Below are positions 2,578 to 51,145 of a stretch of 64,000 nucleotides of DNA, in pieces. Where the stretch lies: positions 698 to 64,697 of the forward strand of contig CADBNT010000064.1 in assembly GCA_902796125.1 (NCBI GenBank), written 5' to 3'. Numbering within the stretch: position 1 is the stretch's first letter; each line of letters begins with the position of its first letter. The stretch is from an uncultured Erysipelotrichaceae bacterium (GTDB lineage Bacteria; Bacillota_I; Bacilli_A; RFN20; CAG-826). Below the pieces are notes generated by a model that was not told the origin of the DNA, did not search any database, and worked only from the letters and a program-made list of their open reading frames with translations. The translations under genes were made by a program, and so were the position numbers.

Positions 2578-2579
2578 TA

Positions 2580-28498: not shown

Positions 28499-29734
28499 TT
28501 AGTCTCTTCTAAGAAGATCTCTTGTATATACTTTGCTCTTTACATCATCCAAAGATGCATCATATCTATTAGCAATAATGACCTTAGAAATCTTCTTAAA
28601 TTCATCAAAGTTTTTAATCACTTTACAGTTGAAGAATTCTTCATCTTTAAGGGTTGGTTCATAGATGACAATCTTCACACCTTTAGCATGTAATCTTTTC
28701 ATAACACCTTGGATTGATGAGGCTCTGAAGTTATCGGAGCCAGATTTCATGGTAAGACGATAGATACCAACAGTGATGTTATCTTTACCATCATTTTTGT
28801 ATCCAGCAAGACGTAAAACTTCATCACAAATAAATTGTTTTCTAGTTCTATTTGATTCAACAATTGCAGAGATCAAATTTTCAGGTACATCTTCGAAGTT
28901 TGCACGTAGCTCTTTTGTATCTTTTGGAAGACAATATCCACCATAGCCAAATGATGGGTTGTTATAGAAATTTCCGATGCGTGGATCAGCACATACTCCA
29001 TTAATAATATCGAGTGTATCCAAACCTTTGGTTTGGGCAAAAGTATCTAACTCATTAAAATAGGCAACGCGAAGGGCCAAATAAGTGTTCGCAAAAAGCT
29101 TCACTGCTTCAGCTTCTGTACAGCCTAAAATATGAATATCAATATCTTTTTTAATAGCCCCTTCTTTAAGTAAATCCGCGAACTCTTTTGCTTTGGATAA
29201 ATATGGCTCTTTTTTCTCTGGAACACCCACCACTATTCTTGATGGATAGAGGTTATCATAAAGAGCTTTTCCTTCTCTTAAAAATTCAGGTGAGAATAAG
29301 AGCTTTTCGTAGCCATATTTTTCTCTAACATATTTAGTAAAACCAACACCAACAGTGGACTTAACAATAATCCAAGCGTTTGGATTTACCTTTTTCACTT
29401 GTTGAATCACAGATTCAACAGAAGATGTATCAAACTTGTTTGTTACAGAATCATAATTTGTTGGAGTTGCAATAACCACTAATTCTGATTCCTTATAAGC
29501 TTTTTCACCGTCTAGCGTTGCTTCTAAATCAAGTTTTTTATTTGCTAAATAATCTTCAATTTCTTTATCGACAATTGGAGACTTTTTATTATTTATTAAT
29601 TCAACTTTTGCTGCGACTACATCAACAGCATATACTTTATTATTTTGAGCAAGGATAATGGCGTTACTTAATCCAACATATCCTGTTCCCGCTACTGCAA
29701 TTTTCATATTAAAACCTCTAAAAAATAATATCAT
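28499..29734 (-). CDS. ugd: UDP-glucose 6-dehydrogenase (nucleotide-sugar dehydrogenase family)
   Basis: N-terminal [23 protein letters not shown]-binding motif and the catalytic GGYCLPKD segment. 411 aa. Confidence 0.85.
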
Positions 29735-29743
29735 AATAGCATT

Positions 29744-30511
29744 TTATTTGCTATTAAGAGATTGAAGATTAACAATTTCAAATAAGATTTCATTTTCTAA
29801 GCAATGGTTGATAATGGTGTTTTTATCAAAAACGTTCATAGATGAAGGAATATATACTTTTTTAGGCTTTAATGTAAATAAACTAACATAATCACCAAAG
29901 TGTTTACTATCATCATGCCCATAGATTCTATATTCACATTCGAAATCATATTTCTTTTTCTTACGCAAAAGAGAGTTTGTAACAATATGTACTTTGTTTT
30001 TTCTGCTTAACGTCAATAGCAGATTATCTGAAGCAAATTTATGCCTCTCTTTATTTAATAAATCATCGCCAACCAAGTCAAAATATTCATTTATAAATTC
30101 AGAAAAATCATAAGGATCATCTATATATTGAATTGCTCCATAGTGCAATCTATATGGTATATCCAACCATAATTGATGGTTAATAATCCGCATTATTTCC
30201 CTTTCATCATATTCAAGGCAAAAACCACAATTAGAAGTAAATTTATCCCAAAGTGAAAGAGATTGAGAACTGGCGGGTGGAACAGAAGAAAAGCAAGAAA
30301 GATAATAATGACTGCGACAATTATCGATTAGATGATGCACTACTTGATTGGCAATCAAAATGATTTTATTTTTCTTTAGCCTGTTCTTATCAACAAACCA
30401 ATCCAGTTCTCCTTGATCGTCAAAATATTTAAACAAAGTACCATTGATTTGGTTCTTTATAAAATAATCAATGTTATATCTATTTGCTGACCTGTACTTG
30501 AAAACTTTCAT
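29744..30511 (-). CDS. Hypothetical protein, DUF2971-like N-terminus
   Basis: 255 aa, soluble. Begins MKVFKYRS..., reminiscent of the DUF2971 family often seen in defense islands. No catalytic motif. Confidence 0.4.
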   Translation of the reverse strand: MKVFKYRSANRYNIDYFIKNQINGTLFKYFDDQGELDWFVDKNRLKKNKIILIANQVVHHLIDNCRSHYYLSCFSSVPPASSQSLSLWDKFTSNCGFCLEYDEREIMRIINHQLWLDIPYRLHYGAIQYIDDPYDFSEFINEYFDLVGDDLLNKERHKFASDNLLLTLSRKNKVHIVTNSLLRKKKKYDFECEYRIYGHDDSKHFGDYVSLFTLKPKKVYIPSSMNVFDKNTIINHCLENEILFEIVNLQSLNSK

Positions 30512-31030: not shown

Positions 31031-34000
31031 TTATTTTTTTATTTTACTCTTGGCTCGAATTGAGTTTTGAGCATTTGCATTTCCGTTTGTAATTAAATGA
31101 ATAAGTTCACCAGAATTCTTTTCAACCCATTCATAATTATCAAGACAAAATCTTCTTCCAATTAAGGCTGCGCTTCTTAAAACAAACTTATCCTTTTCTG
31201 TTTTTAAACATTTCTTCGTTTCATTAACGAACTCAGTCCTATCTGTTGAAAAAGATAAAAGCATTAATTTCTGAGCTAAATGTACATTGTCTTTGTTCAA
31301 AGAAAGTTGGTTGCGAACAGTTTCTATGATTATTGGATTGCGAACAAATCGAGTGCAAATATCGAAAATTGATAGAATCGAAGCATGTATCTCCCACGCT
31401 ATGGATTGTTTCACATATTGATAAGTTACTTTTGTTTGAGGGATTTTAGATAACTGATCATAAACCCGCACAAAAAGAATATCTAGTTTTTTAATTGTAT
31501 CAGCTAGATAAACATTAATAATGGCATAAGGTAACTTAATCAACATTTCTGCAAGCTGGTTCTTCGCATCTTTCCTTAGAACACTAGAAAAATTATTCAT
31601 GATAGAAGAAATTATCAGCGCTTTATTTAACAAGTCATCCAAGCGTAAAAAAGTTGTTCTGCTAATATCGTAATAAAAGTAATCATCTTTGTGACTCAAA
31701 TGAATCTTTCGATTTTTTTCTTCTTCTAATCCTTGCTTTTCCCTTATTTCATTTCTTTTCTTTTTACTTATCTCCAATGCTTTAAATCCTTCATCATTAT
31801 CATCTAATGCTTTGAAAAACGAATCGAAAGAATCGAATTTCATCTCAGGTTCTTTCATTATTCCATCATATAATTCCTTGATAAAAAACTCTGGAATAGT
31901 TCTAATTTCATAATTTGCAGCAATCGAAAATAAAATCTGAAGATTGATTGGTTTATAAATTCCGTTCTCAATTATTTTCTTCAAATATGTTTCATCCTCA
32001 TAATTATTTTTCTTATACATTGCAAATTTTGAGACGTAATGAGCAAAAGTTTTTCTATTGTAGAAAGAAAGTTCGTCTTTTTCGTTTCTTTTAAGAATTT
32101 CAATTTGTATGAGCATTTCAATAAAAGAATCTATGCTTTTGATTGGAGCTCTACCACCATATTCATCGGCCCTTTCTTTTATAGCTTTTATAAACATATT
32201 TTTATCGATCGTGCTCGTTTGCTTTAAATAAGCATCCATAGCAACAAAAGCTATAATATCCTCAGCTATGTTGCAATCGCAATATTGGTAGCCACCTTCT
32301 TTTAAAGCACGATCAAGCATTACTTTAAGTTTTGTTTGAAATAGTGAGTTTGATGGTGATATTTGATAATTTGCTTTTTTTAAATATGATAATGAAACAT
32401 ATATGATATTTGAAGGATCCATCATATTGTCAACATCCAATTCTTTCAACTTATTCTCAATATTTTGTACATAATTATTAAAATCTAAATTATCAACTAA
32501 AGATGGCGTTGTATCTTTAACATATGAATAGACTTTTTCATAAAGTTTTGCCCGTTTATCGTAAAAGAATGGTTCTATTTCAAAAACCTCAAATTCATAT
32601 TCATTATCATCTTCTTCGCTCGATATAAAATCCTTTGATGATAAAGTTGTATAAATAATAGAGCCAAATAATTTTAAAGCATTTCTGAATAAAATGCGTG
32701 ATCCTTTGATTAGGTTATCAATAATCAGGATTCTCTTCTCTTTTGGGACGCAATAAAAAGAGTCGATATCATTCTTTTCGGCATAAAGTTGTTTTAATTG
32801 CCTTGCTATGCTCGATTCTAAATCGGTTCCCAAATCGTCTCCCTTACAAATTAATGGTAAATATCCTTTCTTTCTATATGCCTCAAAAAGATGTTTGACA
32901 AATTGTGATTTCCCAGAACGCACATCTCCTAATATTTTAGTAACACCATCAGTTGCTCTAGCGGATTCGAAACGCTCAAAAGTTGTTATCGATTCTTGGT
33001 TAGAATACTTCTTATGGCTTAGCTTTGGAAAAACAAATAGTTTTTCAATAGGAACAACTAGATTGTTAACGCCATCAAACACTTCCATGTTGCGCAATTC
33101 TTTTATCCTATCGCTTGCAACAATTTGGCCAAATGATGTTGAAAACTTTCTATGTATACTTGCAATGGAAGAAAACTTAAAAATATATTGGTCGATAGAA
33201 AAAGAATAATAATCTGTTTGAATCTTCTCATCATCAAACAAAACAATCGAGAAACCTGACATGTTATTGCAATCTATAGCGGAGGCCGTGAATTCAAGTA
33301 GTTCAGATTCTTCGTTGATGGTTTTTTCAAGCTGTTCCTTATGAACGTGACCAGTAAAAATTGCATCTATTCTGTTTGATAGATTTGTTTTTATGTAATT
33401 AAGACATTCACTTCTTAAATAATTAATAGGCATATGCATAAGAAGAAAAACATAATCGTTATTTTCGCGAGAAATATCCAAAAATTGATTCCTAATATAG
33501 ATTTTTCCTTTATTCAAATCCATACCTTTGTAGTCCTTGTCAAAAAATGACAATAGCGCATTGTTTAAAGAATAAATACGGACTCTTTCCTCACCAACCA
33601 TACAATCGTAACGCTTCAAAATAGGATTTACATTTTCAAAACTAGGGCATATTCTTTTCTCAAAATCGAAATAATGCTTGTTTAGATAAAGATTATTATT
33701 CATTTCCGTTTCATAATTACTTTTGGTAATGGAAGAAATGTAATTAAGATCACGTTTTTCACCATTATTGAAAAGCCTGTCATGATTTCCCGGACACAAA
33801 GATACCTTTACCCTCTTTTCATTAGAAATATTACTAACCAATTCTCTAATATAATTTTCTGCATATACATATTCACTGCTTTTTCCTGTTTTGGATATAT
33901 CACCAGAAAACAAAATTAAAACATCGCGATATTCTGAATACTTGCTGTTCAATATGTTTGAAATGCTTTTAATTTTCTTTTCTTTGCTTTCAACAACGTC

Positions 34001-34042
34001 TTCAATGTGTAAATCGCTAATATGCAACGTTAATAATTTCAT
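31031..34042 (-). CDS. Large multidomain protein: N-terminal calcineurin-like metallophosphoesterase, central P-loop NTPase, C-terminal helical region
   Basis: Metallophosphoesterase motifs LHISDLHIE (like D-x-H), FSGDISKTG (like GD), and CPGNHD (like GNH[DE]). Walker A GDVRSGKSQ and Walker-B-like RILIIDNL. 1003 aa. The ATGA start overlaps the upstream ATPase gene. Confidence 0.65.
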   Translation of the reverse strand: MKLLTLHISDLHIEDVVESKEKKIKSISNILNSKYSEYRDVLILFSGDISKTGKSSEYVYAENYIRELVSNISNEKRVKVSLCPGNHDRLFNNGEKRDLNYISSITKSNYETEMNNNLYLNKHYFDFEKRICPSFENVNPILKRYDCMVGEERVRIYSLNNALLSFFDKDYKGMDLNKGKIYIRNQFLDISRENNDYVFLLMHMPINYLRSECLNYIKTNLSNRIDAIFTGHVHKEQLEKTINEESELLEFTASAIDCNNMSGFSIVLFDDEKIQTDYYSFSIDQYIFKFSSIASIHRKFSTSFGQIVASDRIKELRNMEVFDGVNNLVVPIEKLFVFPKLSHKKYSNQESITTFERFESARATDGVTKILGDVRSGKSQFVKHLFEAYRKKGYLPLICKGDDLGTDLESSIARQLKQLYAEKNDIDSFYCVPKEKRILIIDNLIKGSRILFRNALKLFGSIIYTTLSSKDFISSEEDDNEYEFEVFEIEPFFYDKRAKLYEKVYSYVKDTTPSLVDNLDFNNYVQNIENKLKELDVDNMMDPSNIIYVSLSYLKKANYQISPSNSLFQTKLKVMLDRALKEGGYQYCDCNIAEDIIAFVAMDAYLKQTSTIDKNMFIKAIKERADEYGGRAPIKSIDSFIEMLIQIEILKRNEKDELSFYNRKTFAHYVSKFAMYKKNNYEDETYLKKIIENGIYKPINLQILFSIAANYEIRTIPEFFIKELYDGIMKEPEMKFDSFDSFFKALDDNDEGFKALEISKKKRNEIREKQGLEEEKNRKIHLSHKDDYFYYDISRTTFLRLDDLLNKALIISSIMNNFSSVLRKDAKNQLAEMLIKLPYAIINVYLADTIKKLDILFVRVYDQLSKIPQTKVTYQYVKQSIAWEIHASILSIFDICTRFVRNPIIIETVRNQLSLNKDNVHLAQKLMLLSFSTDRTEFVNETKKCLKTEKDKFVLRSAALIGRRFCLDNYEWVEKNSGELIHLITNGNANAQNSIRAKSKIKK

Positions 34043-35289
34043 ACCGCTATCTCCTTGTTGCCTTTAAAAAAACTATCATTCAAAAAATAATCTATTCCGG
34101 TTTCATTTGAGCCTGTCAAATCGTAACAGTAAACAATGATTTTGATTGTACCATTATTTAATGAAAGTAAATTGCCTATTTCTCTATCATAATTTGCTGC
34201 CGTTATCGTGTGTGCAACCTGAATGTGATAATCATTGCCATTTAATCGATAATTAAAATCAATCTCACCATCAATTTTATTCTTTTTATTCAAAATGATT
34301 TTTCCTCTAGGATTTATTCCTCTAGAAATCAACTCAAGATATACTGCATTTTCTAAACAATTTGATCTGGCTTTATTTTGATTTTCGCATTTTATATAAC
34401 GGATACCGTTATCGCTAAAATAATATTTCTTATTCAATCCAATGTTTTTTAAAGGAGTTTTCTCATTAAAATCATCTACTTCTATGTATGATGTCAAAAA
34501 TGAATTATCAAAGAATTCTAAAACATCTTCAATATCTTTAATCAGTAACATCATATCAAATTTGGTGTTATCCACTCCCTTTGCGAATCTAAAAGCGACT
34601 TGACTTGGGCTAAACGGCGATGCACTAGATGCTAAAAGCGATAGAATCTCATCGATATGGTTTTTAGAAAGATAATTTAATTTTCCTTCTAATCTATCTC
34701 TAATATCTAGTTGATAAATTTCATTGCAAATTTTGCGTAACTCGGAAACGCGCTTTTCTGGCTCCTCATTGATAATAACTGGCAATCCACCATAAAGCAT
34801 GTATTCTTCGAAGGAATAATCACTCTTGTCTTCAACGATTTCTTTATAAGTTAAGGACCTCAAATAAAGCGGATTTGCTAATTCTTTAAAGTTTTCAACG
34901 ATATCCCAAGAAAGAATATCGCTGTTTGAACCAGAAACATAAAGTGTGATATTTTTGTTATCTTTGACAAAATCAGAAAAAAATTTAACATAACCTTTGA
35001 TGAGTTGAGCTTCATCCACAATCAGAACTTTTATATCGTTTTTTACAAGTTTAAAAACCGCTGAAGTTAATTGAGCTAGTGTTTCAATATTCCTATTCTC
35101 ATCGTTTAGTTTTAAAATGCCGATTTCTTGTTCTAAAGCATAATGATTTTCTATTAAATGCTTTTTAAATAGTTCGGTTAAAAGATATGTTTTTCCAGAT
35201 CTTCTAAGACCAGCAACTATATTCACTTTTCCATTGCCGAGAAAAGAAACAAGTTCATTAATTTCGTTTAATCTCTTAAAATCCGCCAT
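34039..35289 (-). CDS. AAA_14 / DUF4143-family ATPase
   Basis: Walker A AGLRRSGKTYLL, Walker B VLIVDEAQ, and a C-terminal DUF4143-like segment KKYYFSDNGIRY. 416 aa. Confidence 0.75.
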   Translation of the reverse strand: MADFKRLNEINELVSFLGNGKVNIVAGLRRSGKTYLLTELFKKHLIENHYALEQEIGILKLNDENRNIETLAQLTSAVFKLVKNDIKVLIVDEAQLIKGYVKFFSDFVKDNKNITLYVSGSNSDILSWDIVENFKELANPLYLRSLTYKEIVEDKSDYSFEEYMLYGGLPVIINEEPEKRVSELRKICNEIYQLDIRDRLEGKLNYLSKNHIDEILSLLASSASPFSPSQVAFRFAKGVDNTKFDMMLLIKDIEDVLEFFDNSFLTSYIEVDDFNEKTPLKNIGLNKKYYFSDNGIRYIKCENQNKARSNCLENAVYLELISRGINPRGKIILNKKNKIDGEIDFNYRLNGNDYHIQVAHTITAANYDREIGNLLSLNNGTIKIIVYCYDLTGSNETGIDYFLNDSFFKGNKEIAV

Positions 35290-36364
35290 AACCTTTTAAT
35301 CCTTTCTCTAATAAATTTTCTAAACCATAATATGCAATGCCAGTTTTATCAATAATTAACTCCATGTGACCCAAAACAGCAACCATTTGAGGAATGTGTG
35401 TTTTTGTTTTTTTAAATCTTTCAACTATTTCATCATTATCCCCGAAATCTATTTTGATGATGCATTTACGATCAAAATATTCAATCAAGAATCCGCGATT
35501 AAATTCCACTCTTGATTTATATTTGCCTTCAACTGTATCTGCATGGTAAGAAATAGCTCTATTCACCATATAGTTTTCCGAAAACATTTTCGCTACCAGG
35601 AAGGCTTCACATTTAAGCTTGTATTTCTTTTCGTGAGGCAAATCGGTTAAATCTATATCGGAAACGAATGTTGGGTAGAAAACAAAACCTGATGATAGTT
35701 CATCCATATCTTTAACATCAACTCTTTTTAAGAGATAAATCATTCCTAATTTATTCATTAGGTTAATAGTGTCGACATAGAACATTAGTCTTCTATCAAT
35801 TGATTTGGTTTGCTCTAAAACATGTCTAAAAGATAAAACTTCACCACTATGATTAACTAGATACTTATAAAGTTCAATGGCGGCATCCTTGGCACCATAA
35901 TTCTCTAAAGGTTTTATGTGATAATCTTCACTCTTTATATCATCACCATAAAGCATTGGTGCTAAAAAGAATCTAATATATCTTCCACGAACCTGCGTAT
36001 CTTTATTTTTTAATTTATAAGAGACTTCAATATCGCTTGTAATAATTCCATCAATATTATTCTTTCCATAGAAAACATTAATTATTGCCTCTGGATAATA
36101 GAAGAAGAATAAATCATGAATAAGCACCACTGCTCTATTGTCTTTACAAAAATCAATGATATCAGCAAGTCTTCCTAAAATATTTCTGTCAGAATATTTC
36201 TCTGGATAAAATTCAAAGAACAAGCAATTATTAATTTTACCTTTAATTGCTTCTTTAACTTCACCAAGTAAATAATTACCTGCTTCGGTTTCCCTGTTGC
36301 AAGTTATGACCTTGGCTTTGCCATTACCGAGATTATCTAAAATATTGAGCGTTAATCTTTTCAT
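35276..36364 (-). CDS. Hypothetical protein, first gene of the repeat-flanked cassette
   Basis: 362 aa, soluble, with no motif I recognise. It overlaps the ATPase gene by 14 nt, so they are translationally coupled. Confidence 0.5.
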   Translation of the reverse strand: MKRLTLNILDNLGNGKAKVITCNRETEAGNYLLGEVKEAIKGKINNCLFFEFYPEKYSDRNILGRLADIIDFCKDNRAVVLIHDLFFFYYPEAIINVFYGKNNIDGIITSDIEVSYKLKNKDTQVRGRYIRFFLAPMLYGDDIKSEDYHIKPLENYGAKDAAIELYKYLVNHSGEVLSFRHVLEQTKSIDRRLMFYVDTINLMNKLGMIYLLKRVDVKDMDELSSGFVFYPTFVSDIDLTDLPHEKKYKLKCEAFLVAKMFSENYMVNRAISYHADTVEGKYKSRVEFNRGFLIEYFDRKCIIKIDFGDNDEIVERFKKTKTHIPQMVAVLGHMELIIDKTGIAYYGLENLLEKGLKGYGGF

Positions 36365-36598: not shown

Positions 36599-37876
36599 CT
36601 AGCAGCTTTTGAAATCGCGCACCTTAACAACGAATAACGAACTATACAAAGTTGGGCTGCCCGTTTTAAATCCAACAACTTGTACATAATGATTTCCATT
36701 ATATGATGTGTGTTCTTCTCTAATTAATCTAGAAGAAGGACTTATTTCAACATTTGATTCTTCGCAGCCGCCCCTCAATTGGTTTGCAATTCTAGCTTCG
36801 TATCCGGCGTTAGAAATAACAAATTTAAAATCATAGCCTGAATAGAATGAACTTTTATTTATTTCAAATCTTAAATACGTTTCTTTATCTACTGTATCAC
36901 CGCTTTGAACAGTCGTAGAAGTTCCTTTTATGTGACAAGATAATGATAGTAAAGGTGACTGAATTTGATAATTAAGTAGATTTGAGTGTTGTTTGGCATT
37001 TTTTTGATATGCCTCAGCGATTCTTGTTTCTAAATCATTAATTGAAGAATTTGAAATCAAATAATTAATAACAAGATGTTCATCATCGGTTAGTAAAACT
37101 TCATATAAATTTTTTATAAACTCTCGGATTGTAAAGAATTCACTATTACTATGTATGTCCATGATATTGTTTCCATTTGGATTCGCCGGATCATATATTT
37201 TTGTGATACCTATTTCAAAATAATGTTTAGAGAATTCGATTAATTTTTCCACTAATGATGAATTGTCATCCAAGCAAGGTTCCACAACATCAACTGCAAA
37301 AATCTCTAAAAAGAATGATTTAAAAGCAAAGTTATGAGTTTTTCTTAAAATTTTTATTATTCTAACTACATCTTTCATTTTTGAAGACTGTATCTTTTTT
37401 ATTTGTTTTTCTGGATTACTCTTCAATCTCGAATCATCTTTATTGCAATATAAATAAACATCTTTTTCGTCACCACCACTTGAATATTTACCAGGAACAA
37501 CATCAACGGAAATGTCTTCCCAAATTCTGTAGTCTTTACCATAAACTAGAATCGCACTATTTTTCTTTTGAATTAAATACCCGGCTTTAGTTAACGCAGA
37601 TGCGATACCATTATAAATATCGCGAACTGATAATTGGGTGTCGCTTTCAAAATAAACAAGCAAATCTATATCGCAACTATCTTTATTAGCGGTTCCTTTA
37701 GCTAGAGAACCACCATAGCGATAATTTGGCTTGGCATCAAACCCTTCATTTATTGCCGATTCGATAGGATCACGGATGACGTTTTTAAAATGTTCCCAAA
37801 GGCCATCTTTAATTTGGTGTTTTGATAATAATTCTTTAAATATTGCATCAGTCAGCATATTAAATAGTCTTCGCAA
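36599..37876 (-). CDS. Pol-beta-superfamily nucleotidyltransferase, SMODS / CD-NTase-like
   Basis: GGSLAKGTANKDSCDIDLLVYF contains the GS...DxD nucleotidyltransferase signature. A downstream acidic DISVDVVP and a KSFFLEIF helix are reminiscent of cGAS/DncV-like enzymes. 425 aa. Confidence 0.55.
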   Translation of the reverse strand: MRRLFNMLTDAIFKELLSKHQIKDGLWEHFKNVIRDPIESAINEGFDAKPNYRYGGSLAKGTANKDSCDIDLLVYFESDTQLSVRDIYNGIASALTKAGYLIQKKNSAILVYGKDYRIWEDISVDVVPGKYSSGGDEKDVYLYCNKDDSRLKSNPEKQIKKIQSSKMKDVVRIIKILRKTHNFAFKSFFLEIFAVDVVEPCLDDNSSLVEKLIEFSKHYFEIGITKIYDPANPNGNNIMDIHSNSEFFTIREFIKNLYEVLLTDDEHLVINYLISNSSINDLETRIAEAYQKNAKQHSNLLNYQIQSPLLSLSCHIKGTSTTVQSGDTVDKETYLRFEINKSSFYSGYDFKFVISNAGYEARIANQLRGGCEESNVEISPSSRLIREEHTSYNGNHYVQVVGFKTGSPTLYSSLFVVKVRDFKSC

Positions 37877-38657
37877 TCTTAAACGTTTTCAAATTCAAAG
37901 AGAAAGCATACTCATTGTTTAAATACTCATAAACAATAATTTCTGGATGTCTTTCTTCAATGGCTGTTCCAACAACAAAAGAGACAGGTTGTTTTGCAGA
38001 AATATACATATTTATTCTTTTAATATTTCTTGTTTGTGACCACACTAACACAGATTCTACAAATTGATATACCTTTTGCAAATATTTATTATCAATTTTA
38101 TTATTTGTTAATTCTTCGAATTCGAACGTTTTTAAAGATGCATTATATTTTGAAGGCGAAATCTTATATGTACTTGAAATAACTATATTGATTTCATTTC
38201 CAACTAAAACATCGCCACATTCGATTTCAGCGGGACTATTGCTTGATTTTTTTGAATAAAGAATTGAATAATATGAGTTTTTATTATTGTCATAGCAAAT
38301 TAAATCTAATTTAGTTGTATTACCAATTTCCATTCCATCAAAAACAGCAAACATTGGTGAAACAAATCCGCCATAAGTAAAATCAATGTTTTCTTTAAGA
38401 TTTCTTTTTATTTGAAATAACCTATACTGCATCTTCTTAAAATGTGTTCGATACATTTTATAACTTGTGGGTAAATTCTTGCCTAAAACAATGACTTTTG
38501 AATCTTTAACATTAATACATTTGCTACGGCACGCTTCTTCCAAGTTAAAAGACTTTTTGTTTGAATTAAGATAAACTATGCTTTTGTTTTTCCAAAAAAT
38601 GGCAGTTATACATGCCCAAATCTTTTTAAAAATAAATAATCCCGTTTCTAAAGTCAT
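37860..38657 (-). CDS. Hypothetical protein with an N-terminal hydrophobic helix and a beta-strand-rich C-terminus; candidate effector partner of the NTase
   Basis: 265 aa. The N-terminus GLFIFKKIWACITAIFW is hydrophobic. The C-terminal half alternates hydrophobic and polar residues (IVISSTYKISP, VSFVVGTAIEE, IIVYEYLNNEYAFSLNL). Its 3' end overlaps the NTase start by 17 nt. Confidence 0.45.
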   Translation of the reverse strand: MTLETGLFIFKKIWACITAIFWKNKSIVYLNSNKKSFNLEEACRSKCINVKDSKVIVLGKNLPTSYKMYRTHFKKMQYRLFQIKRNLKENIDFTYGGFVSPMFAVFDGMEIGNTTKLDLICYDNNKNSYYSILYSKKSSNSPAEIECGDVLVGNEINIVISSTYKISPSKYNASLKTFEFEELTNNKIDNKYLQKVYQFVESVLVWSQTRNIKRINMYISAKQPVSFVVGTAIEERHPEIIVYEYLNNEYAFSLNLKTFKIAKTI

Positions 38658-39084: not shown

Positions 39085-39690
39085 TTATCTATAGATTCGA
39101 CGATAATAATGATGTAGCATGTAGAAAACAAACATATGCTCGTCTAAATTCGAAATTGAAAAGTCAATGTTACTGTTATAAGCGTTCAATCCATGGGCAA
39201 GGGTATTACGCGACTTTCTACAAGCCTTATACAACTCTTTAAAAATTGAAAAATCAGTAAAATTATAGATAGTAACAAGTCCACTTAAAACGATACTGTG
39301 TTTCCTGTATTTATTAAATTCTATTTGAGTGGTCCCAATTAGAACATCACATTCATTGACTATTTCAGCCATTTTATCCGCATCAAAAAAATATGGCATT
39401 TTAGTGTCGTCAGGAATCACAAAGGCGCGAATTGTTCTTCCAACCCTATTTCGCCTTGAGTATACAGAAACAATTCCTCGCAAAGTTGCTTCAATAGCTA
39501 CATAAATGTCAAAATAGTATTTAAAAAACAGGGCGTTTTCTTGATCGGTATCTTCGCTATCATGTTTTTCCCACAAATTATCAGTAATAGTTAGTCGGTT
39601 CTTCAAAAGAAGAATTATCTCACTTGGAGAGAAAATCTGTACAACTGCCATCTTATTCAATAAAAGTCCCGACCGTTTCAAACCTATCAA
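39085..39690 (-). CDS. HEPN-motif (R-x4-H) protein, putative RNase/effector
   Basis: CRKSRNTLAHG contains Rx4H in an otherwise helical 201-aa protein. Its start overlaps the DUF262 gene by 38 nt. Confidence 0.4.
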   Translation of the reverse strand: MIGLKRSGLLLNKMAVVQIFSPSEIILLLKNRLTITDNLWEKHDSEDTDQENALFFKYYFDIYVAIEATLRGIVSVYSRRNRVGRTIRAFVIPDDTKMPYFFDADKMAEIVNECDVLIGTTQIEFNKYRKHSIVLSGLVTIYNFTDFSIFKELYKACRKSRNTLAHGLNAYNSNIDFSISNLDEHMFVFYMLHHYYRRIYR

Positions 39691-40798
39691 TGATTGTTTT
39701 TTTATTGGTCGTTGACCAATAAAACGGATTATCTATTTTTTCTGTTTGACACCAAAATTCAATTTTTTTCTTATTAAAATACTCTAAATCAAAATTCCTG
39801 CAACCATTTATCATAAAATATACTATTATTGCTTCTGCAGTAACCTCGTGGAAAGAGTTGTTTAATCCTTTTCTTTCTTCCGATACCCCGAGAAAAATAG
39901 ATGAATCATATTTTCTCAAAAAGTCGAACACATCTTTGATAATTTTGATGTGTTCACAATAATTGATTCTTTGAATATTAGATAAATACATGTACTGTGA
40001 AAGCATTGTTTTTTTAGACCCTGTAATTCTAATATTTGTTTTATCTGCCAACATATCTGTGTTGTGAAGCAATTGTTGTGTGATTTGATAATATGTCAAA
40101 CATCTTAAAATAAATTCCTCGCCCAATCCTCGTTCACTATATTTTCTTTTCGCAAATATACTGCCAAGCTTTTTTTCTGTCAAAAAAACATCCTTTAAGC
40201 ATCTACTTAAATCGCCATTATAGACTGCATTTCTTATTTCTTGATCAGTTAATTTTGCAGAGCCTGTATTTATTCTTTCAAAAATTTCTGTCATATAAAG
40301 TTTTTTTGTTGCTTCGTTATTTTCGACAGAATCAAAAACATTAAACTTTAATGAATAATCATCAAAAATATCTCTGTCTTCTGGCGATAAAGAATTGTAC
40401 GTAAAACCATTCCATTCACTACCCGGCAAATTTATCTTAAAAAGTTTATGAATTGTTCCGTTATCATAATGACCTTTTACAAATTGTTTAATACAAGTAA
40501 ATCTCTGCAAACCGTCAATCAATACAAATCGCTCATTATTGTTTTCTCTATCTCTAAATAAAAATAAATCTGGAACTGGTAAGCCTAAAAGGAGGGATTC
40601 AATAAATTTGCAACATTGTTTATAATCCCAAACAAAATTCCTTTGGAATTCAGGAATTACGATTTTGTTCCTTTCTTCAAGAGACAATAAATCACGAATA
40701 CTTCTTTCAATTTTAAAGGAATTGAATGAATACCTAGAAATCTTAATTTCCTCATCGAAGTTTTCATCAATCATTTCCATATAATTTCTCCTTTTCAA
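39653..40798 (-). CDS. DUF262 (ParB/Srx-like, GmrSD N-terminal domain) protein
   Basis: IPEFQRNFVWDYKQCCKFIESLLLGLPVPDLFLF and LIDGLQRFT correspond to the DUF262 QR/DGQQR motifs. 381 aa. Confidence 0.7.
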   Translation of the reverse strand: MKRRNYMEMIDENFDEEIKISRYSFNSFKIERSIRDLLSLEERNKIVIPEFQRNFVWDYKQCCKFIESLLLGLPVPDLFLFRDRENNNERFVLIDGLQRFTCIKQFVKGHYDNGTIHKLFKINLPGSEWNGFTYNSLSPEDRDIFDDYSLKFNVFDSVENNEATKKLYMTEIFERINTGSAKLTDQEIRNAVYNGDLSRCLKDVFLTEKKLGSIFAKRKYSERGLGEEFILRCLTYYQITQQLLHNTDMLADKTNIRITGSKKTMLSQYMYLSNIQRINYCEHIKIIKDVFDFLRKYDSSIFLGVSEERKGLNNSFHEVTAEAIIVYFMINGCRNFDLEYFNKKKIEFWCQTEKIDNPFYWSTTNKKTIIDRFETVGTFIE

Positions 40799-40900: not shown

Positions 40901-41647
40901 TCACTTCACATTCTTATATTTTTTCTTGCCGTAAAACGCCCATCTAACAACATAGAACCAACTCTTAAACCAATTAATTCCTTGGGTTTTATGGTAGACA
41001 CGATGCATTTTTCCGATGAGCTTAAATTTATTAGATGATTTGCTTCCAGGAAGAATGTTATATGTAGCAAGAACTTTCGGATTTCCTTTAGCAACATATC
41101 CTTTCCTTAATATATTGAGCCAAAATACATAATCTTCTGGTCTATCAATATCTTCAGGAAAGAATACTTCTCCAATAACACTTCTATCATACATAGTGGT
41201 TAAACAAGAAAGAGGATTTCCTTTTAATGCTTTTTTATAATCAACTTCATCAGGCACAAAAAAATCGGTACATGTACGTTTGGCCTTTCTTCTATATCCA
41301 GCAGAAATAAGAGGTCCATGTTCTTTTATAAACTCCAATTGACATTCTAAATAATTAGGATCTAGTTCGTCGTCAGAATCTAAAAAAGTAATGTATCTGC
41401 CACTCGCATGTTTTAAACCTAGGTTTCTTGCAACAGAAGTTCCACTATTTTTATCGGTTCTTAAAATGATAATCCTATTATCTTTTTTTGAAAGCTCTTC
41501 AATTAGTTTAAAAGAACCATCAAACGAATTATCGTCAACAACGATCCATTCCCAATCTGAAAAGGTCTGGGAAAGTACACTCTCGTACGTTTCTTTTATT
41601 GTCTTTTTGCAATTGAATGCAGGTGTAATAATACTAACTAGTGTCAT
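40901..41647 (-). CDS. Glycosyltransferase family 2
   Basis: VSIITPAFNCKKTIKETYESVLSQTFSDWEWIVVDDNSFDGS is a classic GT2 N-terminus with DXD. 248 aa. Confidence 0.8.
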   Translation of the reverse strand: MTLVSIITPAFNCKKTIKETYESVLSQTFSDWEWIVVDDNSFDGSFKLIEELSKKDNRIIILRTDKNSGTSVARNLGLKHASGRYITFLDSDDELDPNYLECQLEFIKEHGPLISAGYRRKAKRTCTDFFVPDEVDYKKALKGNPLSCLTTMYDRSVIGEVFFPEDIDRPEDYVFWLNILRKGYVAKGNPKVLATYNILPGSKSSNKFKLIGKMHRVYHKTQGINWFKSWFYVVRWAFYGKKKYKNVK

Positions 41648-41758: not shown

Positions 41759-41977
41759 TTATATCGCATATGGAAAAGGCACCACTTTTTTTAGAGTTTG
41801 TAGTGCTTTAATTCTTGGTTCATTAGCAGTCAATTTTTTCACAAATTCAAAAGAACCATCAGTAGATTGATCATCCACTATTATCCATTCCCGTTCAGAA
41901 TATGTTTGAAAAACAACGCTTGCAAACGTTTGCTGACTTGATTCCTTTGAGTTAAAAAGGGTGCAATATTGAAACAA
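41759..41977 (-). pseudogene. N-terminal fragment of a GT2 glycosyltransferase paralog (degenerate remnant)
   Basis: TLFNSKESSQQTFASVVFQTYSEREWIIVDDQSTDGSFEFVKKL aligns to residues about 10-55 of the adjacent GT2. The frame terminates after about 72 codons and no further coding signal follows. Confidence 0.55.
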
Positions 41978-45930: not shown

Positions 45931-47030
45931 TTATTTCTTCCCTTAAATACTTTTATGTATTCCGATGACGCCCTATCAATAGAAACCATTTTTAAGTTTT
46001 CTACATAATTCTCTTCTAAAAGATCATTAATCGTATCTATTCTATTAAGAAATGACACCATACTTGTATACAGGCTATCTTCCAATTTTGAATCATAGGC
46101 AATTAATTGTCCATTTTTACTATTTACCACATCGGGTATTCCACCAACAGAAGTGGCAATAACAAAACTTCTTGAAGCAATGGCTTCGTTAATAACAATC
46201 GGATTTCCTTCATAAGTTGATGGCAAAAGAAGACATTTAGCATTAGTAATAAATGGGGAGACATCTTCAATAAACCCTTTAAACTCAACGCCAGGAATGT
46301 TGTTATCTGACACATATTGCTTGCACCAAGAAAGCAATGGACCTTCCCCTATCATCACCAATGTAGACGAAGGATGAACATCCAATACTTTTTTGAAACA
46401 GGAAAGAATTATTTTGGTATTTTTCAGCTCAATAAATCTTCCAATAAAAATGAAATCTATGTTTCTTTCCCCTAATGATGTTGATACGGAAAAGTGATTT
46501 GTTGGAACACCATTATAGACAACTTCTACATAGGAAGGATCCAAACGATAATAATCACAAATGGATTTCTTGATTGTTTGAGATATAGCAACAGGAAAGA
46601 TATTTTTCCGCTTAAAGAGCATTTTGTAAAGAATATTTTTTGGTGCGCTCTTTTTGCCAACAACAGAGGTGTTGATCAAAGTATGGAACGTATAAAACGT
46701 TTTTATTTTTTTGAATATTCCAGAAAGCCAAATTGTGAGAATAGAATCTAAGTGAGAATGGATAATATCAGGTTTAATAGATTCAATAAGTTTTTTAAGT
46801 TTTTTAGCACATTTTAAATCTATTCCTTTTTTCTTTTCTAAAAAGAACATTTTGATTTTGCTTTGTTCCATTAAAGTTTTGACGATAGGATTGTCTTGTT
46901 TTGTATAAAGAGAAATTATGAATACTTCATCGCCTTCGGTTACAAAAGAATTAGAAAGATCAATCAAAAATCTTTCAGCACCACCTAAAGGATATAAACA
47001 AGGAATCACTTCACATATTCTCATTAGCAA
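45927..47030 (-). CDS. Glycosyltransferase family 4
   Basis: EGNPIVINEAIASRSFVIATSVGGIPD motif. 367 aa. Confidence 0.8.
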   Translation of the reverse strand: MLMRICEVIPCLYPLGGAERFLIDLSNSFVTEGDEVFIISLYTKQDNPIVKTLMEQSKIKMFFLEKKKGIDLKCAKKLKKLIESIKPDIIHSHLDSILTIWLSGIFKKIKTFYTFHTLINTSVVGKKSAPKNILYKMLFKRKNIFPVAISQTIKKSICDYYRLDPSYVEVVYNGVPTNHFSVSTSLGERNIDFIFIGRFIELKNTKIILSCFKKVLDVHPSSTLVMIGEGPLLSWCKQYVSDNNIPGVEFKGFIEDVSPFITNAKCLLLPSTYEGNPIVINEAIASRSFVIATSVGGIPDVVNSKNGQLIAYDSKLEDSLYTSMVSFLNRIDTINDLLEENYVENLKMVSIDRASSEYIKVFKGRNK

Positions 47031-48298
47031 ACCACCTCATAAAAAATATCCTTAGGTTTATTAACAATCTTTTTTGCTTTGTTGAATGCAGAGAAAACAA
47101 AATCATTTTCTCCAGATAAGACAATAATCAAAGGAATAAGAATTGATTCGATTTTCGAATTAAAAATTACTAAGAAAAATTGTATCAAAAATAGATAACT
47201 GCCAAACAATACAATGAAAGCCTTCGTCTTTTTTGAAGAGCTCTTCAATTGAATGAATGGGAATAAAATTAGTATTTCTTCAGCTATCAAAGCAAAGATT
47301 CCATAATCAGCACCGATTTCAGCAATATTATTATGAGCCATAATTTTGTAGTTACTAACCACACTGTTATATCCATTTCCAAATAATGGTGATTCAGCAA
47401 AAAGTCTAAATCCATACATCGCAGCGCTAAATCTTCCGATTGTTGAGGAATCAATTCTATAATCGCCAGCCCCGAAAAGAGATGAAATAATTGATAAAAT
47501 TCTATTTTTTATTGGGCTTAAAGCAGAGACTGAGGATAATAATACAAAAATAACAATAGCAATGATACTAAAGCCCACAATAATAAGTGGTTTAACTTTC
47601 TTCTTAGAAATGGCAATTAAAAAACAAATTACAATTACAAAAAGAAGCAAAATGTTAGAAATTGAACCAGTCAAAATTAAATAATATGAACTTAAAACAG
47701 AGATTACCGCCACAATGGTTATAAGCGTTTTTCTTTTGAAAGCATATATGTAGTAGCAATTAATTAAAAAAGCGAACATTATATGTCTAGCAACATCGTT
47801 TTGATTTCCAAAGTACGCTCCAATACGATTGGATAAATTTGGGCGTACAATCGCCATAAATTCAATGGCTGTAAAGAATAACAAAAATAGCCAGGAAGCA
47901 ACAAGAAAACCCATTAGATATATTTTAATATATCGTTTATTAGCAGAGAACCAAACATATGAAAATATTGATAACAAACCCATCAAAATAGGAGTTCTTG
48001 GAAAGTCATTAAACCCATTAACAAGAAAGCTTGTAAGCATGCAAAGCAAAATAAGCGAAGCACAAATTGCAAAAATGCCAATTTGAGGTACTATTTTGTT
48101 AAGAATCATATAAACTAATGAGCTGCCAATAAAAACGGCAACCAAGATAATATTGATGTAGTTAAATGGAGAAATGGCATCAAGTGTTAGTGAAATAAAG
48201 CACACCATCACAAAAGAGATGAAATTAATAATGGCAAGCAGATGACTAGAAAAAGACACCGAAAAATACTTTTTCAGTAAATGGTTAATTTTTTTCAT
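47024..48298 (-). CDS. O-antigen ligase / Wzy-like polytopic membrane protein
   Basis: 424 aa with about 11 TM helices and one larger loop, placed between the GT4s and Wzx. Confidence 0.55.
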   Translation of the reverse strand: MKKINHLLKKYFSVSFSSHLLAIINFISFVMVCFISLTLDAISPFNYINIILVAVFIGSSLVYMILNKIVPQIGIFAICASLILLCMLTSFLVNGFNDFPRTPILMGLLSIFSYVWFSANKRYIKIYLMGFLVASWLFLLFFTAIEFMAIVRPNLSNRIGAYFGNQNDVARHIMFAFLINCYYIYAFKRKTLITIVAVISVLSSYYLILTGSISNILLLFVIVICFLIAISKKKVKPLIIVGFSIIAIVIFVLLSSVSALSPIKNRILSIISSLFGAGDYRIDSSTIGRFSAAMYGFRLFAESPLFGNGYNSVVSNYKIMAHNNIAEIGADYGIFALIAEEILILFPFIQLKSSSKKTKAFIVLFGSYLFLIQFFLVIFNSKIESILIPLIIVLSGENDFVFSAFNKAKKIVNKPKDIFYEVVC

Positions 48299-49590
48299 TC
48301 AACAACATCTCCTTTTTTCTTGATAAACAAAACTGTAAAAACGATGAGAACCATCACCAAATAAACGGTGGTAGCAATCATGACTAATGGATTGAAAAAT
48401 GCATAAATGTTTTTAGTGTGCCATATGGATCTTACAACGAAAGAGATGATTAAAAGCATAATAGGTGTGGTTGTTAACGGAATGAATGACGACACCTCAG
48501 TCAAATTCCGTTTACTAAAGTAAGCGTAAACTGCAAAAATTAAATAATCGATAGAACAAAAAACAATACCAAGAATGGCTAATCCATAGTTTTCTTTAGC
48601 ATTAAAAAACACATTAGTAATATTATTTGAATTAGGAACTTTTTGTGTGCCGCTTTTAGATGAATAATAGATTGTCGCTTTGACATCGTCAGCTTTAAAA
48701 ACAGTCTTATAATTAGTTGCCATTGTCAATGTTTCATCGAGCATATATCGTTTTGGTTGAAATTCACAAAACACTGTAGTGTGTAATTCCTTATTCAAAT
48801 CAGAAAAATGCCCATAATTAGAGACAAAACAAAAGCCCTTAAAGAAAAGGTCGAGTATTTTACCAGTATTTAAATCATTGTATTTAAATTGTTTTTCAAC
48901 CATATGTCTTTCATTAAAGCCATTAACATGGAAAATGTTAGCAATTTTATATTTAAATGATTTCGTTTCGTTGCCTAACGAAATGCTATTTAAAGAATCG
49001 TTAGTCAAAAAATCATCGTAAGTATATTCTGGATAAAAATTATCAATTATGTAATCAGCATAATAATCAGGAATATATATAAAACCATCGAAATTACTGC
49101 TGTCATAGTAAAGCTCTTCTTGACGGGGTCTATATTTAAAAATATTTATGCAAACGGTTTCTAGTCTTAATAATTCTGCATCATTTGAATAGTTTCGCCC
49201 ACTTACCACACATGTTGAAAAAGGCATTTTTTCGCCATTAAAAAGAGTATCGAAAGAGGCAACATCAGAATTGTCGGAAATTGTCATTAATTTGGTCGAA
49301 GTTCCAGAAAAATTCTCTGAATATGTATCAGAAAAAATAGTTTCTGGAATATTATTTTTCTTTTCGCCAGTAATGTCTATATTGGCATAACAGTATTGTG
49401 CACCATTTTGTTTACATTCATTTGCAAAAAAAGATAATTCGGAGCTTTTTTGAACATAATTTAGATTTGAAAACACAAATCCACATGGAACAAAAACAAT
49501 AATTTCAATTAAAGGAATTAGAAACTTAAAAACCGTTTTTTTATTCATTTTCTCGTTCCATCCTTTCAATGCGTTTTTGTATAGTACCAA
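48295..49590 (-). CDS. Membrane protein of unknown function (N-terminal TM, large extracytoplasmic domain, C-terminal TM bundle)
   Basis: 431 aa. One N-terminal helix, about 300 aa of hydrophilic sequence, then three C-terminal helices. It overlaps both neighbours. Confidence 0.5.
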   Translation of the reverse strand: MVLYKNALKGWNEKMNKKTVFKFLIPLIEIIVFVPCGFVFSNLNYVQKSSELSFFANECKQNGAQYCYANIDITGEKKNNIPETIFSDTYSENFSGTSTKLMTISDNSDVASFDTLFNGEKMPFSTCVVSGRNYSNDAELLRLETVCINIFKYRPRQEELYYDSSNFDGFIYIPDYYADYIIDNFYPEYTYDDFLTNDSLNSISLGNETKSFKYKIANIFHVNGFNERHMVEKQFKYNDLNTGKILDLFFKGFCFVSNYGHFSDLNKELHTTVFCEFQPKRYMLDETLTMATNYKTVFKADDVKATIYYSSKSGTQKVPNSNNITNVFFNAKENYGLAILGIVFCSIDYLIFAVYAYFSKRNLTEVSSFIPLTTTPIMLLIISFVVRSIWHTKNIYAFFNPLVMIATTVYLVMVLIVFTVLFIKKKGDVVE

Positions 49591-51145
49591 AAATTTTCGT
49601 AATTAATTTATCAATAGATAATCTTTCAGAAGCGTTTAAGCCAATAAAGCAAACGAAAAGAACGTATGAAATCGCAACTATTAATGCTTTTAACAAAAAC
49701 ATAATCCAAGAAGAATCTGGGAATAACTTATAAATAACAACACCTATCACTATCGTAAAAATAATCGGGATTATAAACGATAGGTATGCACTTCCAAAAA
49801 ATGAAAATGGATTGATTTTCAAATATTTATAAAAGCATATATCAAACAATATTGTTCTCGTGACAAAACCGATGCAAATTCCCAAAGAAACTCCAACAGC
49901 CCCCCAAACATAAGCAAGACTAATTGAAGATGCGATTCCAACCACAAGAGAAGCTAATGTTGACAAAGCACAAGAACGAATCTTTCCAATTGCTGCCATA
50001 GCATTTTCGGCAGTTTGCAAGGGGTAGAAGAATAAAGCAGGTAAGCATATTGCTAAAATGCAATAATAAGAACGACTATACCCATCTCCAACCCACAAAT
50101 AGATAAACTCTTTTCCACAAACAAACAAACCAACAAGAATCAAGGAAAGGATTAGAACTTGAATTCTGGCAATTTTTATATGGAACTTTTTAAAATCTTC
50201 TAATGAATTTGTATAATTATCGCCATTTGAGAATAGGATTCTAGAAATAGATGGATAAAAAATTGAACCAAATGCTGTTGCGAAAAGAGAAACATAAGAT
50301 TCTATTTGAATGGCAATTGAAAGAATAGCTATCTCTGCAGATCCATGAGCTTGCTGCGAAGTAAAGCCCAAAATAGTTGGTGTGAAAGAAACAAGAACAA
50401 CTCTACCGAAAGAGTTAATTGCTGCCCATAATGAGAAAGATATTACTTCTTTGAAAATCTTTTTGAATTCTTCAGCTTTCAATCTTGTGAAAAAATGACA
50501 TGGCGTTTTAATTTTAACAAACAACAATTTTAGAAAAACGCTTATAATGCCATGCAATGCATAACAGGACGTGAGGAAATATAATCCAAGATTGTTTGCT
50601 AAGACAATAATAGTTGTGATTATAAATATAAGTTTTGAAATAATATCAGCTATTTTTGTTAAGAATATCTTATCGTATGCAACAAGCATCCCATTCACAA
50701 TAGAGAATGGAAAAGTCAAAACGCTATATCCAGCAACAATAAGAAACACTATTTTAAAAGATTGAATTTCCGATTCAGTAAACGAAGTATATATTTTATC
50801 TAAAAATATAAAGGTTATTGAAAAAGCAATTAAAATAATAACTGATAATATCAAAAAACAAACAAACACAACTGAAATAAGTTTGTTAATTTCTTCCTGT
50901 GAAGAGGTAACTCTGTATTTTGAAATAAACTTAGTAACAGCTGTTCCAAGACCCAAATCAACAATAAACATCGTTATCAATGAAGATGCGGCAGTATAAA
51001 GACCATAATTGGATTGCCCAATGCTTTTTATGATGAAAGGAACTAAAAGGAAACCAGAAATAATATTTAAGGCAATTAAAAAATAACTAAGAAAAATTCC
51101 TAGTTTCAATTCTTTGTTGGTTTTTGTACTATCGCTACCTTTCAT
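49541..51145 (-). CDS. Wzx-type polysaccharide flippase (MOP superfamily)
   Basis: 534 aa, about 14 TM helices, with Polysacc_synt-like composition. Confidence 0.75.
   Translation of the reverse strand: MKGSDSTKTNKELKLGIFLSYFLIALNIISGFLLVPFIIKSIGQSNYGLYTAASSLITMFIVDLGLGTAVTKFISKYRVTSSQEEINKLISVVFVCFLILSVIILIAFSITFIFLDKIYTSFTESEIQSFKIVFLIVAGYSVLTFPFSIVNGMLVAYDKIFLTKIADIISKLIFIITTIIVLANNLGLYFLTSCYALHGIISVFLKLLFVKIKTPCHFFTRLKAEEFKKIFKEVISFSLWAAINSFGRVVLVSFTPTILGFTSQQAHGSAEIAILSIAIQIESYVSLFATAFGSIFYPSISRILFSNGDNYTNSLEDFKKFHIKIARIQVLILSLILVGLFVCGKEFIYLWVGDGYSRSYYCILAICLPALFFYPLQTAENAMAAIGKIRSCALSTLASLVVGIASSISLAYVWGAVGVSLGICIGFVTRTILFDICFYKYLKINPFSFFGSAYLSFIIPIIFTIVIGVVIYKLFPDSSWIMFLLKALIVAISYVLFVCFIGLNASERLSIDKLITKIFGTIQKRIERMERENE

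Follow-up and report, generated by a model that had tools for sequence, protein, structure and literature searches.

The 64,000-nt stretch of DNA analysed here (hereafter the window; contig CADBNT010000064.1, positions 698 to 64,697, of an uncultured Erysipelotrichaceae bacterium) carries on its minus strand two adjacent genes, A and B, which probably form a co-transcribed, translationally coupled anti-phage module of the type catalogued as 'DUF262, HEPN' under the name PD-T4-2 (Vassallo et al. 2022). Four observations carry this reading: the domain identities, catalytic motifs that are intact in both proteins, a strictly conserved gene pair, and the homology of protein B to HEPN proteins that are linked to other DUF262 genes. 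The pair has no DNA nuclease domain and no ABC ATPase partner. A first-pass annotation of this DNA had proposed that a DUF262 nucleoside triphosphatase (NTPase) or sensor is paired here with a HEPN ribonuclease (RNase) effector that takes the place of DUF1524, and this proposal is supported by hallmark residues, predicted topology, profile comparison and gene pairing, as far as sequences and structural models can tell. The features on which the argument draws are as follows.

40788 to 40792, minus strand: Shine-Dalgarno sequence AGGAG, 7 nt upstream of ATG 40780, read in the sequence
39653 to 40780, minus strand: gene A, DUF262 (ParB/Srx-fold NTPase) protein of 375 aa from ATG 40780, without a DUF1524/HNH domain
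40628 to 40654, minus strand: DUF262 motif I of gene A, PEFQRNFVW (QRxxxW), with P43, Q46, R47 and W51 invariant in 10 partners
40502 to 40516, minus strand: DUF262 motif II of gene A, DGLQR (DGxQR), the predicted NTP-binding centre, with D89, G90, Q92 and R93 invariant in 10 partners
40262 to 40282, minus strand: DUF262 motif III of gene A, FERINTG (FxxxN), with F167, R169, N171, T172 and G173 invariant in 10 partners
39652 to 39655, minus strand: gene junction TAAg, followed by ATG 39651, with a 1-nt spacer, read in the sequence
39085 to 39651, minus strand: gene B, all-helical HEPN-type protein of 188 aa from ATG 39651, a predicted RNase effector of a rare family
39478 to 39492, minus strand: E54-x3-R58 of gene B (AIEATLR), acidic HEPN active-site element Ex3[KR], in predicted helix 2, with E54 invariant
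39193 to 39210, minus strand: RNTLAH of gene B (R148 to H153), Rx4H HEPN catalytic motif, where predicted helix 3 ends and the loop begins

In a listing of the maximal open reading frames (ORFs) of the window, the pair appears as two minus-strand ORFs that both begin with TTG, 39653-40798 (381 aa) and 39085-39690 (201 aa). The first-pass annotation had reported exactly these two frames, and its lengths are right for maximal ORFs, although not for the likely genes, which encode 375 and 188 aa. The 38-nt overlap that it had reported between them is an ORF-calling artefact, because the first TTG after the upstream stop was taken as the start of each frame; the likely starts, ATG 40780 and ATG 39651, leave a gap of 1 nt. 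The 375-aa start of gene A is preferred because AGGAG lies 7 nt before ATG 40780, and all gene B homologues start at a methionine that corresponds to ATG 39651. With the junction reading TAAgATG, genes A and B are therefore tightly coupled, and the 1-nt spacer suggests that this coupling is translational. In homologous loci the junction varies, the extremes being an overlap of 14 nt and a gap of 6 nt. A scan for promoters and terminators gave a promoter signal no different from that of shuffled sequence and found no terminator, and an exact-sequence look-up of the two proteins from their ATG starts returned no match.

The assignment of protein A to DUF262, made in the first-pass annotation from the motifs IPEFQRNFVW and IDGLQRFT, was confirmed. 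Both motifs are present in the translation, as is the RNTLAH motif reported for protein B, and residues 34-193 match Pfam GmrSD_N (PF03235) over profile positions 1-198 of 199 (E=6.5e-27, 95.4 bits against a cut-off of 33.2 bits). The three DUF262 motifs QRxxxW, DGxQR and FxxxN were defined in an analysis of the Menshen system (PMC12065111), and their invariance in gene A was read from an alignment of 10 DUF262 proteins that precede HEPN genes. Among PADLOC models the best match was NsnA (2e-42, 144 bits), which covers the full length of the protein and includes its C-terminal region; this region aligns with the part of NsnA named ParBDB, a DNA-binding domain, in the Menshen paper (PMC12065111). 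PD-T4-2_A scored lower (2.6e-32, 110 bits) and matched over profile positions 33-245 of 363 only. In PHROGs the match was phrog_2598 (1.9e-49), and the sole sequence match in the Protein Data Bank (PDB) was 7p9k, a DUF262 domain-containing protein (E=3e-4). A Pfam scan found no DUF1524 match in protein A or protein B at E≤1, and no DUF1524 gene lies next door, the flanking genes encoding a glycosyltransferase of family 2 (GT2) and a SAVED protein. The label 'split GmrSD' that had been given to the pair is not the best one: nothing homologous to GmrD/DUF1524 accompanies the DUF262 protein, and the best-scoring profile is NsnA. Because of these profile scores, the missing ATPase partner and the missing DUF1524, we place gene A in the NsnA/PD-T4-2_A clade of DUF262 proteins and regard it as a component of neither Menshen nor GmrSD. 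The A protein is typical of the DUF262–HEPN class.

Gene B belongs to a rare family. A word-indexed search of 5.8 billion sequences found 4 relatives, and a profile search among 1.84 billion representatives found 37 clusters at 50 % identity. Divergence within the full family alignment prevented search patterns from being derived from it. A pattern scan recovered 1 locus in 185,579 GTDB species representatives, in a Christensenellaceae metagenome-assembled genome, and no relatives in IMG/VR or in JGI metagenomes; a tblastn search of gene B against phage genomes gave no match. The family alignment used here holds 29 sequences with 18-97 % identity to the window protein. In all 29, residues R19, E54, R148 and H153 are invariant, and N149 and A152 are at least 90 % conserved, so that the consensus around the catalytic motif is R-N-x-[LIVM]-A-H-G. 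The Rx4H motif says little by itself, because its chance expectation, estimated from composition, is about 1 in 3 for a protein of 188 aa. Its invariance across the whole alignment, together with the invariant R19 and E54, is beyond chance as judged from these sequences.

The predicted structure of protein B points in the same direction. AlphaFold2, run on the family alignment, gave a model with a predicted local distance difference test score of 89.6 and a predicted template modelling score of 0.88, and all five models agreed. Four long helices are predicted (H1, residues 9-29; H2, 35-65; H3, 134-152; H4, 166-187), with short helices in an insert at residues 66-133; RNTLAH (148-153) lies at the boundary of H3 and the following loop, and E54-ATL-R58 lies within H2. 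The HEPN domain has been described as a four-helix up-down bundle in which a variable insert separates the second helix from the third, with an Rx4-6H motif in which a polar residue (N, D or H) follows the arginine, and with a further conserved residue, acidic and located in helix 2, that often belongs to an Ex3[KR] element (Anantharaman et al. 2013, PMC3710099). As aligned and modelled, gene B agrees with this description on each point.

Homology to known HEPN proteins became visible at the level of the family. When the 29 members were scanned against Pfam at E≤1, HEPN families were the commonest: 5 members had sub-threshold matches to MAE_28990 (best 0.003), 4 to RiboL-PSP (best 4e-4), 2 to Apea and 2 to Csx1. 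Swt1 appeared once, and DUF4145, which the first-pass annotation had named as a candidate domain, was matched by 1 of the 29 at E=0.14 and was rejected. One member matched the HEPN part of the PADLOC CARF_HEPN model at 2.6e-4. Alignment of the family with hhalign against 30 MAE_28990-type proteins, gathered starting from the HEPN partner of the phage P24B2 DUF262 gene, gave a probability of 59 % (E=9e-5); in a relaxed run the two were collinear over nearly their full length, with R19 paired with R13, E54 with E70 and RNxLAHG with RNDLAHG. Against 69 RiboL-PSP-type DUF262 partners the probability rose to 87 % (E=3.9e-6, 135 columns), and E54 aligned with the invariant glutamate of both types of partner. 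Useful probabilities came only from such comparisons of alignment against alignment, whereas hhalign runs in which the family was compared with the single sequences of four HEPN partners from phages gave weak results (0.3-20 %). In the reverse direction, the hidden Markov model (HMM) of the gene B family detected 15 RiboL-PSP-type partners at 7e-6 to 9e-4, and 14 of the top 25 matches of the MAE_28990 HMM were real gene B members against a 100-fold excess of shuffled decoys. The best Foldseek matches by template modelling (TM) score were HEPN proteins (7bxo_F, 0.63; 1wwp_A, 0.57; 1jog_A, 0.51), with E-values that were not significant. A search of the family profile against PDB sequences returned a chance SRP54 match alone (E=8).

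Co-occurrence of the two genes, suggested in the first-pass annotation as a check, was strict: a gene A homologue lies directly upstream of every gene B family member for which upstream DNA is available, in 11 independent loci (L001, L003/L004, L005, L007, L008, L009, L011, L012, L013/L014, L015 and L065). Across these loci the A proteins share 29-61 % identity with that of the window and the B proteins 28-70 %, and no third gene is conserved beside the pair. We also took a census of 124 loci with gene A relatives (44 from IMG/VR and 80 from metagenomes), in which the next co-directional ORF was classified; 111 had a scorable downstream ORF. This ORF was a RiboL-PSP-type HEPN protein (~153 aa, R[NH]xIAHG) in 80 of the 111, a MAE_28990-type HEPN protein in 15, a weak HEPN match in 5, a match to the motif only in 1, a gene B family member in 1 (L065), the NsnB ATPase in 2 and some other ORF in 7. 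A HEPN gene therefore follows DUF262 in at least 95 of the 111 loci, and HEPN features are found in 91 %. The same arrangement occurs in the phages P24B2 (P2-like), Mcat24 (Moraxella), ST16-OXA48phi5.4 (Klebsiella) and Chambord (Akkermansia), and the A proteins of these operons align end to end with gene A of the window. Within this clade, DUF262 proteins appear to be paired predominantly with HEPN proteins. The window pair shows the marks of such a DUF262(ParB)–HEPN operon: the HEPN gene is adjacent and co-directional, DUF1524 is absent, and the arrangement is conserved across genomes.

These data also bear on the idea that the locus is a degenerate Menshen system, that is, an orphan NsnA that has lost NsnB and NsnC and happens to be followed by an unrelated small ORF. 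NsnA is the top PADLOC match of gene A, as this idea would predict. However, a genuine NsnA, from Vibrio phage L9-1 (locus L018), scored 360 bits on the same model, against 144 bits for gene A, and was followed by an NsnB of 344 bits. In the window, gene A is followed by the 188-aa HEPN-type protein, 427 nt of non-coding DNA and a cyclic oligonucleotide-based antiphage signalling system (CBASS), and an ABC ATPase is absent after gene B both here and in five longer contexts. As A and B stay paired in each of 11 loci, and as the product encoded after related DUF262 genes has HEPN features in 91 % of cases rather than being NsnB, the degenerate Menshen reading is effectively refuted by the conservation data.

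Several results weigh against a DUF262–HEPN module. The 188-aa protein B itself had no usable match in Pfam, PADLOC, PHROGs or NCBIfam, so that the HEPN profile search proposed in the first-pass annotation gave nothing for the protein itself and sub-threshold matches for some of its relatives. Neither gene B model reached a significant E-value in Foldseek against the PDB, and the gene B model found nothing in BFVD. PADLOC PD-T4-2_B matched neither the window protein (E≤1) nor five other members (E≤0.1). The profile–profile probabilities of 59-87 % are suggestive, not decisive, as they rest largely on two short motifs. The label 'RiboL-PSP-type' in the census derives from a jackhmmer search that began with two phage proteins passing or approaching PF18735, rather than from a Pfam scan of each protein. 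Coupling of the pair to DNA methyltransferase genes occurs at L007 and L011, where the logic by which self and non-self are told apart is possibly other than in the window. Lastly, we found in the literature no description of the mechanism of PD-T4-2 or of any DUF262–HEPN pair. As to the missing PD-T4-2_B match, this model is narrow, because well-supported RiboL-PSP partners match it at 4e-4 or not at all. Matches of gene B to Sta1, Rex and DpsA in NCBIfam (E ~0.02-0.25) were dismissed as noise.

If protein B were not a nuclease, it could be a non-catalytic helical adaptor or DNA-binding subunit, and the effector would then be the DUF262 protein, either as a ParB-like nuclease or through NTP depletion. 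Such a role would fit the failure of the window protein to reach significance with any library HEPN model or fold search, and ParB-fold domains have been termed DNases (Anantharaman et al. 2013). It would leave unexplained why R148 and H153 are invariant, and N149 and E54 conserved, at HEPN catalytic positions in 29 sequences that are as little as 18 % identical, and it is at odds with the profile-level homology to HEPN partners. We consider this explanation very improbable. That gene B encodes a HEPN-type protein is well supported, though not proven, by alignments and models.

How a DUF262–HEPN module would act can be outlined from its relatives. The DUF262 domain of GmrSD, BrxU and SspE is an NTP-binding and NTP-hydrolysing sensor of modified DNA, and its action drives a conformational change by which a linked nuclease is activated (PMC12065111 and another review). 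HEPN nucleases typically dimerise into a composite Rx4H site and, in defence, cleave tRNA or mRNA (DARNA preprint). Because of these behaviours, we favour a model in which A senses and B cleaves. Protein A would sense phage DNA, probably modified or otherwise non-self, by analogy with GmrSD, BrxU, SspE and NsnA, and the binding or hydrolysis of NTP would serve as the switch. Protein B would probably be dimeric, with a composite R148/H153 site aided by E54, and protein A would either restrain B or activate the B dimer through its NTPase cycle. On sensing, B would cleave RNA (tRNA or mRNA), so that translation stops and the phage is kept from replicating, possibly at the expense of the cell. The physical complex of A and B, the trigger, the RNase activity, the RNA target and the defence phenotype are all features that we infer from the families named here.

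A more specific version of this model is tentative. It holds that the gene B family is a functionally distinct HEPN branch, in which the 68-residue insert and the invariant R19 near the N-terminus could form an interface dedicated to the C-terminal region of protein A. The pair would then be a type IV restriction sensor linked to an RNase, in which recognition of DNA that is modified or foreign in some other way is read out by NTP hydrolysis and triggers cleavage of RNA in place of DNA. If this were shown, the PD-T4-2 class as a whole would have its first mechanism, and the trigger or the RNA target might differ from those of the Escherichia coli prototype.

The tight stop–start junction and the strictly conserved partnership would also fit a toxin–antitoxin pair, in which B would be a constitutive HEPN toxin and A its dedicated neutraliser, as MNT is for HepT; defence would then arise because phage infection destabilises or titrates A, and not by active sensing of DNA with NTP-driven activation. 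Protein antitoxins often accompany HEPN toxins, the HepT-type toxins 7bxo_F and 7ae9_A are the nearest structural matches of protein B, and inhibition of HEPN proteins by a protein partner is among the modes of regulation given in the DARNA preprint. The toxin gene would lie downstream of the putative antitoxin gene, an order that is compatible with such a pair but not diagnostic of it. However, protein A retains three invariant NTPase motifs and a C-terminal region, which exceeds the needs of a simple antitoxin, and DUF262 acts as sensor and switch in GmrSD, BrxU and SspE. We therefore judge a toxin–antitoxin pair to be unlikely, and keep to the sensing module.

A further alternative resembles restriction–modification, with the pair as the restriction arm, a self-marking DNA methyltransferase elsewhere in the genome, and protein A detecting unmethylated DNA. 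It is prompted by the methyltransferase genes that lie directly upstream of, and coupled to, the DUF262 genes of two family loci. At L007 (2699-6582) a C5 methyltransferase gene overlaps the DUF262 gene by 4 nt. At L011 (2317-6555) an N6/N4 methyltransferase gene precedes it with a 2-nt gap, and an IceA-like nuclease is also present. A methyltransferase likewise adjoins the pair in Akkermansia phage Chambord and phage P24B2, and PD-lambda-5 consists of a ParB/HEPN protein and a methyltransferase. The translational coupling at L007 and L011 hints that some family members work with a self-marking methylase, and leaves room for a restriction–modification-like variant in part of the family. The window pair, however, has no adjacent methyltransferase, with a glycosyltransferase upstream and CBASS downstream, and none adjoins the pair in L009, L012 or L015; PD-T4-2, moreover, was cloned as a two-ORF region so short (1.5 kb) that it has no space for a methyltransferase gene. 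For the window this explanation is distinctly improbable, and the sensing module remains our preferred reading.

The pair stands at one edge of a low-GC stretch (window 28000-56000, ~30 % guanine and cytosine against 35 % in the flanks) and within a defence island on the minus strand (29.7-40.8 kb), which itself lies inside a polysaccharide-biosynthesis cluster. The following genes mark this cluster.

28499 to 29734: UDP-glucose dehydrogenase
40901 to 41647: GT2 glycosyltransferase
47024 to 48298: Wzy-like protein
49541 to 51145: flippase
52143 to 53270: acyltransferase

As in the window, genes for polysaccharide synthesis (GT2, Polysacc_synt and Acyl_transf_3) directly adjoin a distant DUF262–HEPN member at L012 (906-6561); polysaccharide clusters may be a recurrent insertion site for the pair, or this may be coincidence. 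Within the window's cluster, a 72-aa ORF at 41759-41977 on the minus strand (…QTYSEREWIIVDDQSTDGSFEFVKKL…) is similar to the N-terminal end of the GT2 protein encoded beside it and is probably a truncated glycosyltransferase remnant. At 28006-28488 on the minus strand, where the GC content falls, lies the gene for a 160-aa member of the uracil-DNA glycosylase superfamily (Pfam UDG, 4e-6).

Directly downstream of the pair lies the CBASS operon (window 36599-38657, minus strand). Its CD-NTase (425 aa) has a C-terminal AGS_C sensor domain and matches a PADLOC cyclase model at 5.8e-47; its SAVED protein (265 aa) is encoded with a 17-nt overlap with the CD-NTase gene and has transmembrane (2TM/1TM) SAVED effector models as its best PADLOC matches. 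A functional link between the pair and CBASS was considered and rejected, as in other loci the pair is not accompanied by homologues of the CD-NTase and SAVED proteins of the window. In L015, a 399-aa NTP_transf_2/Polbeta protein (1871-3070, minus strand) adjoins a distant member of the pair, and it gave no tblastn match to the window's CD-NTase at 1e-3. An RNA antitoxin or repeat element near the pair, of the AbiF or ToxIN kind, was likewise rejected: there was no notable Rfam match, and the sole tandem repeat was a trivial 2-copy 10-mer.

Beyond CBASS, the island holds three PADLOC candidate systems. Three overlapping genes at 31031-36364 on the minus strand (overlaps of 4 nt and 14 nt) look like an uncharacterised three-gene defence candidate, with the following products.

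362-aa protein: no family match; its cluster at 90 % identity has 27 members on many metagenome contigs
416-aa protein: AAA_14 ATPase, PADLOC candidate PDC-S01 (6e-52)
1003-aa protein: calcineurin-like phosphoesterase (Metallophos), PDC-S60 (1.5e-13)

At the far edge of the island, a 255-aa DUF2971 protein (29744-30511, minus strand; PADLOC candidate PDC-S31, 1.3e-9) is a possible single-gene defence candidate.

This locus opens no new category of biology. It bears on the question of how a DNA-sensing NTPase controls an RNase in a class whose prototype has been validated against T4, yet for which we found no mechanism described. For comparative mechanistic work it supplies a set of invariant residues (R19, E54, R148 and H153 in protein B; D89, Q92 and R93 in protein A). 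It also illustrates that DUF262–HEPN systems are under-called in Firmicutes metagenomes, and we suggest that the 188-aa 'hypothetical protein' be annotated as a DUF262-associated HEPN-type putative RNase.

Among known systems, the GmrSD, BrxU and SspE proteins share with gene A an N-terminal DUF262 NTPase with DGxQR, but the window pair lacks their DUF1524 His-Me nuclease, whether fused or adjacent; as the predicted effector is an RNase, the target is therefore probably RNA rather than phage DNA. The sensor architecture of Menshen NsnA, a ParB-DUF262 domain with a C-terminal ParBDB-like region, is apparently shared with gene A, whereas the NsnB ABC ATPase and the NsnC inPIN-effector of that system (Millman et al. 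2022) are missing from the window. HepT–MNT and other small HEPN toxins (7bxo, 7ae9, 1wwp, 1jog) share the Rx4H motif with gene B and are its best matches by TM-score, at levels that are not statistically significant; unlike in HepT–MNT, the partner of gene B is a DUF262 NTPase and not a nucleotidyltransferase. The window pair belongs to the same gene-neighbourhood class as the operons in which RiboL-PSP and MAE_28990 HEPN genes were recorded with ParB/DUF262 genes (Anantharaman et al. 2013, PMC3710099). The HEPN partners in those operons pass Pfam thresholds, while the gene B family does not and is far rarer. In reviews, PD-T4-2, Menshen and Dazbog are named as largely uncharacterised systems with DUF262 but without DUF1524 (PMC12065111 and another).

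The closest known system is PD-T4-2, a 1.5-kb two-ORF region of E. coli ECOR65 that protects against T4 and whose deletion in the native strain restores T4 plaquing (Vassallo et al. 2022). Like the window pair, it is a two-gene operon in which a ~365-aa DUF262 protein without DUF1524 is followed by a small HEPN protein. The published HHpred results for PD-T4-2B are HEPN_RiboL-PSP (97.8 %) and HEPN_MAE_28990 (96.9 %) (Vassallo et al. 2022), and these are the two HEPN families that the gene B family most resembles. Unlike PD-T4-2B, protein B is not recognised by the PD-T4-2_B model and is longer (188 aa against a 168-position profile), with an insert of 68 residues that separates helix 2 from helix 3, and the C-terminal half of gene A fits NsnA better than PD-T4-2_A. 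The setting differs too, as the host is an uncultured low-GC Firmicute in which the locus is chromosomal and lies within a polysaccharide cluster. Taken together, these sequence comparisons indicate that the window pair is a divergent member of the known PD-T4-2-type DUF262–HEPN class; the architecture is not new, and what the locus adds to the class is gene B, a rare and very divergent effector branch that both PADLOC PD-T4-2_B and the Pfam HEPN families miss.

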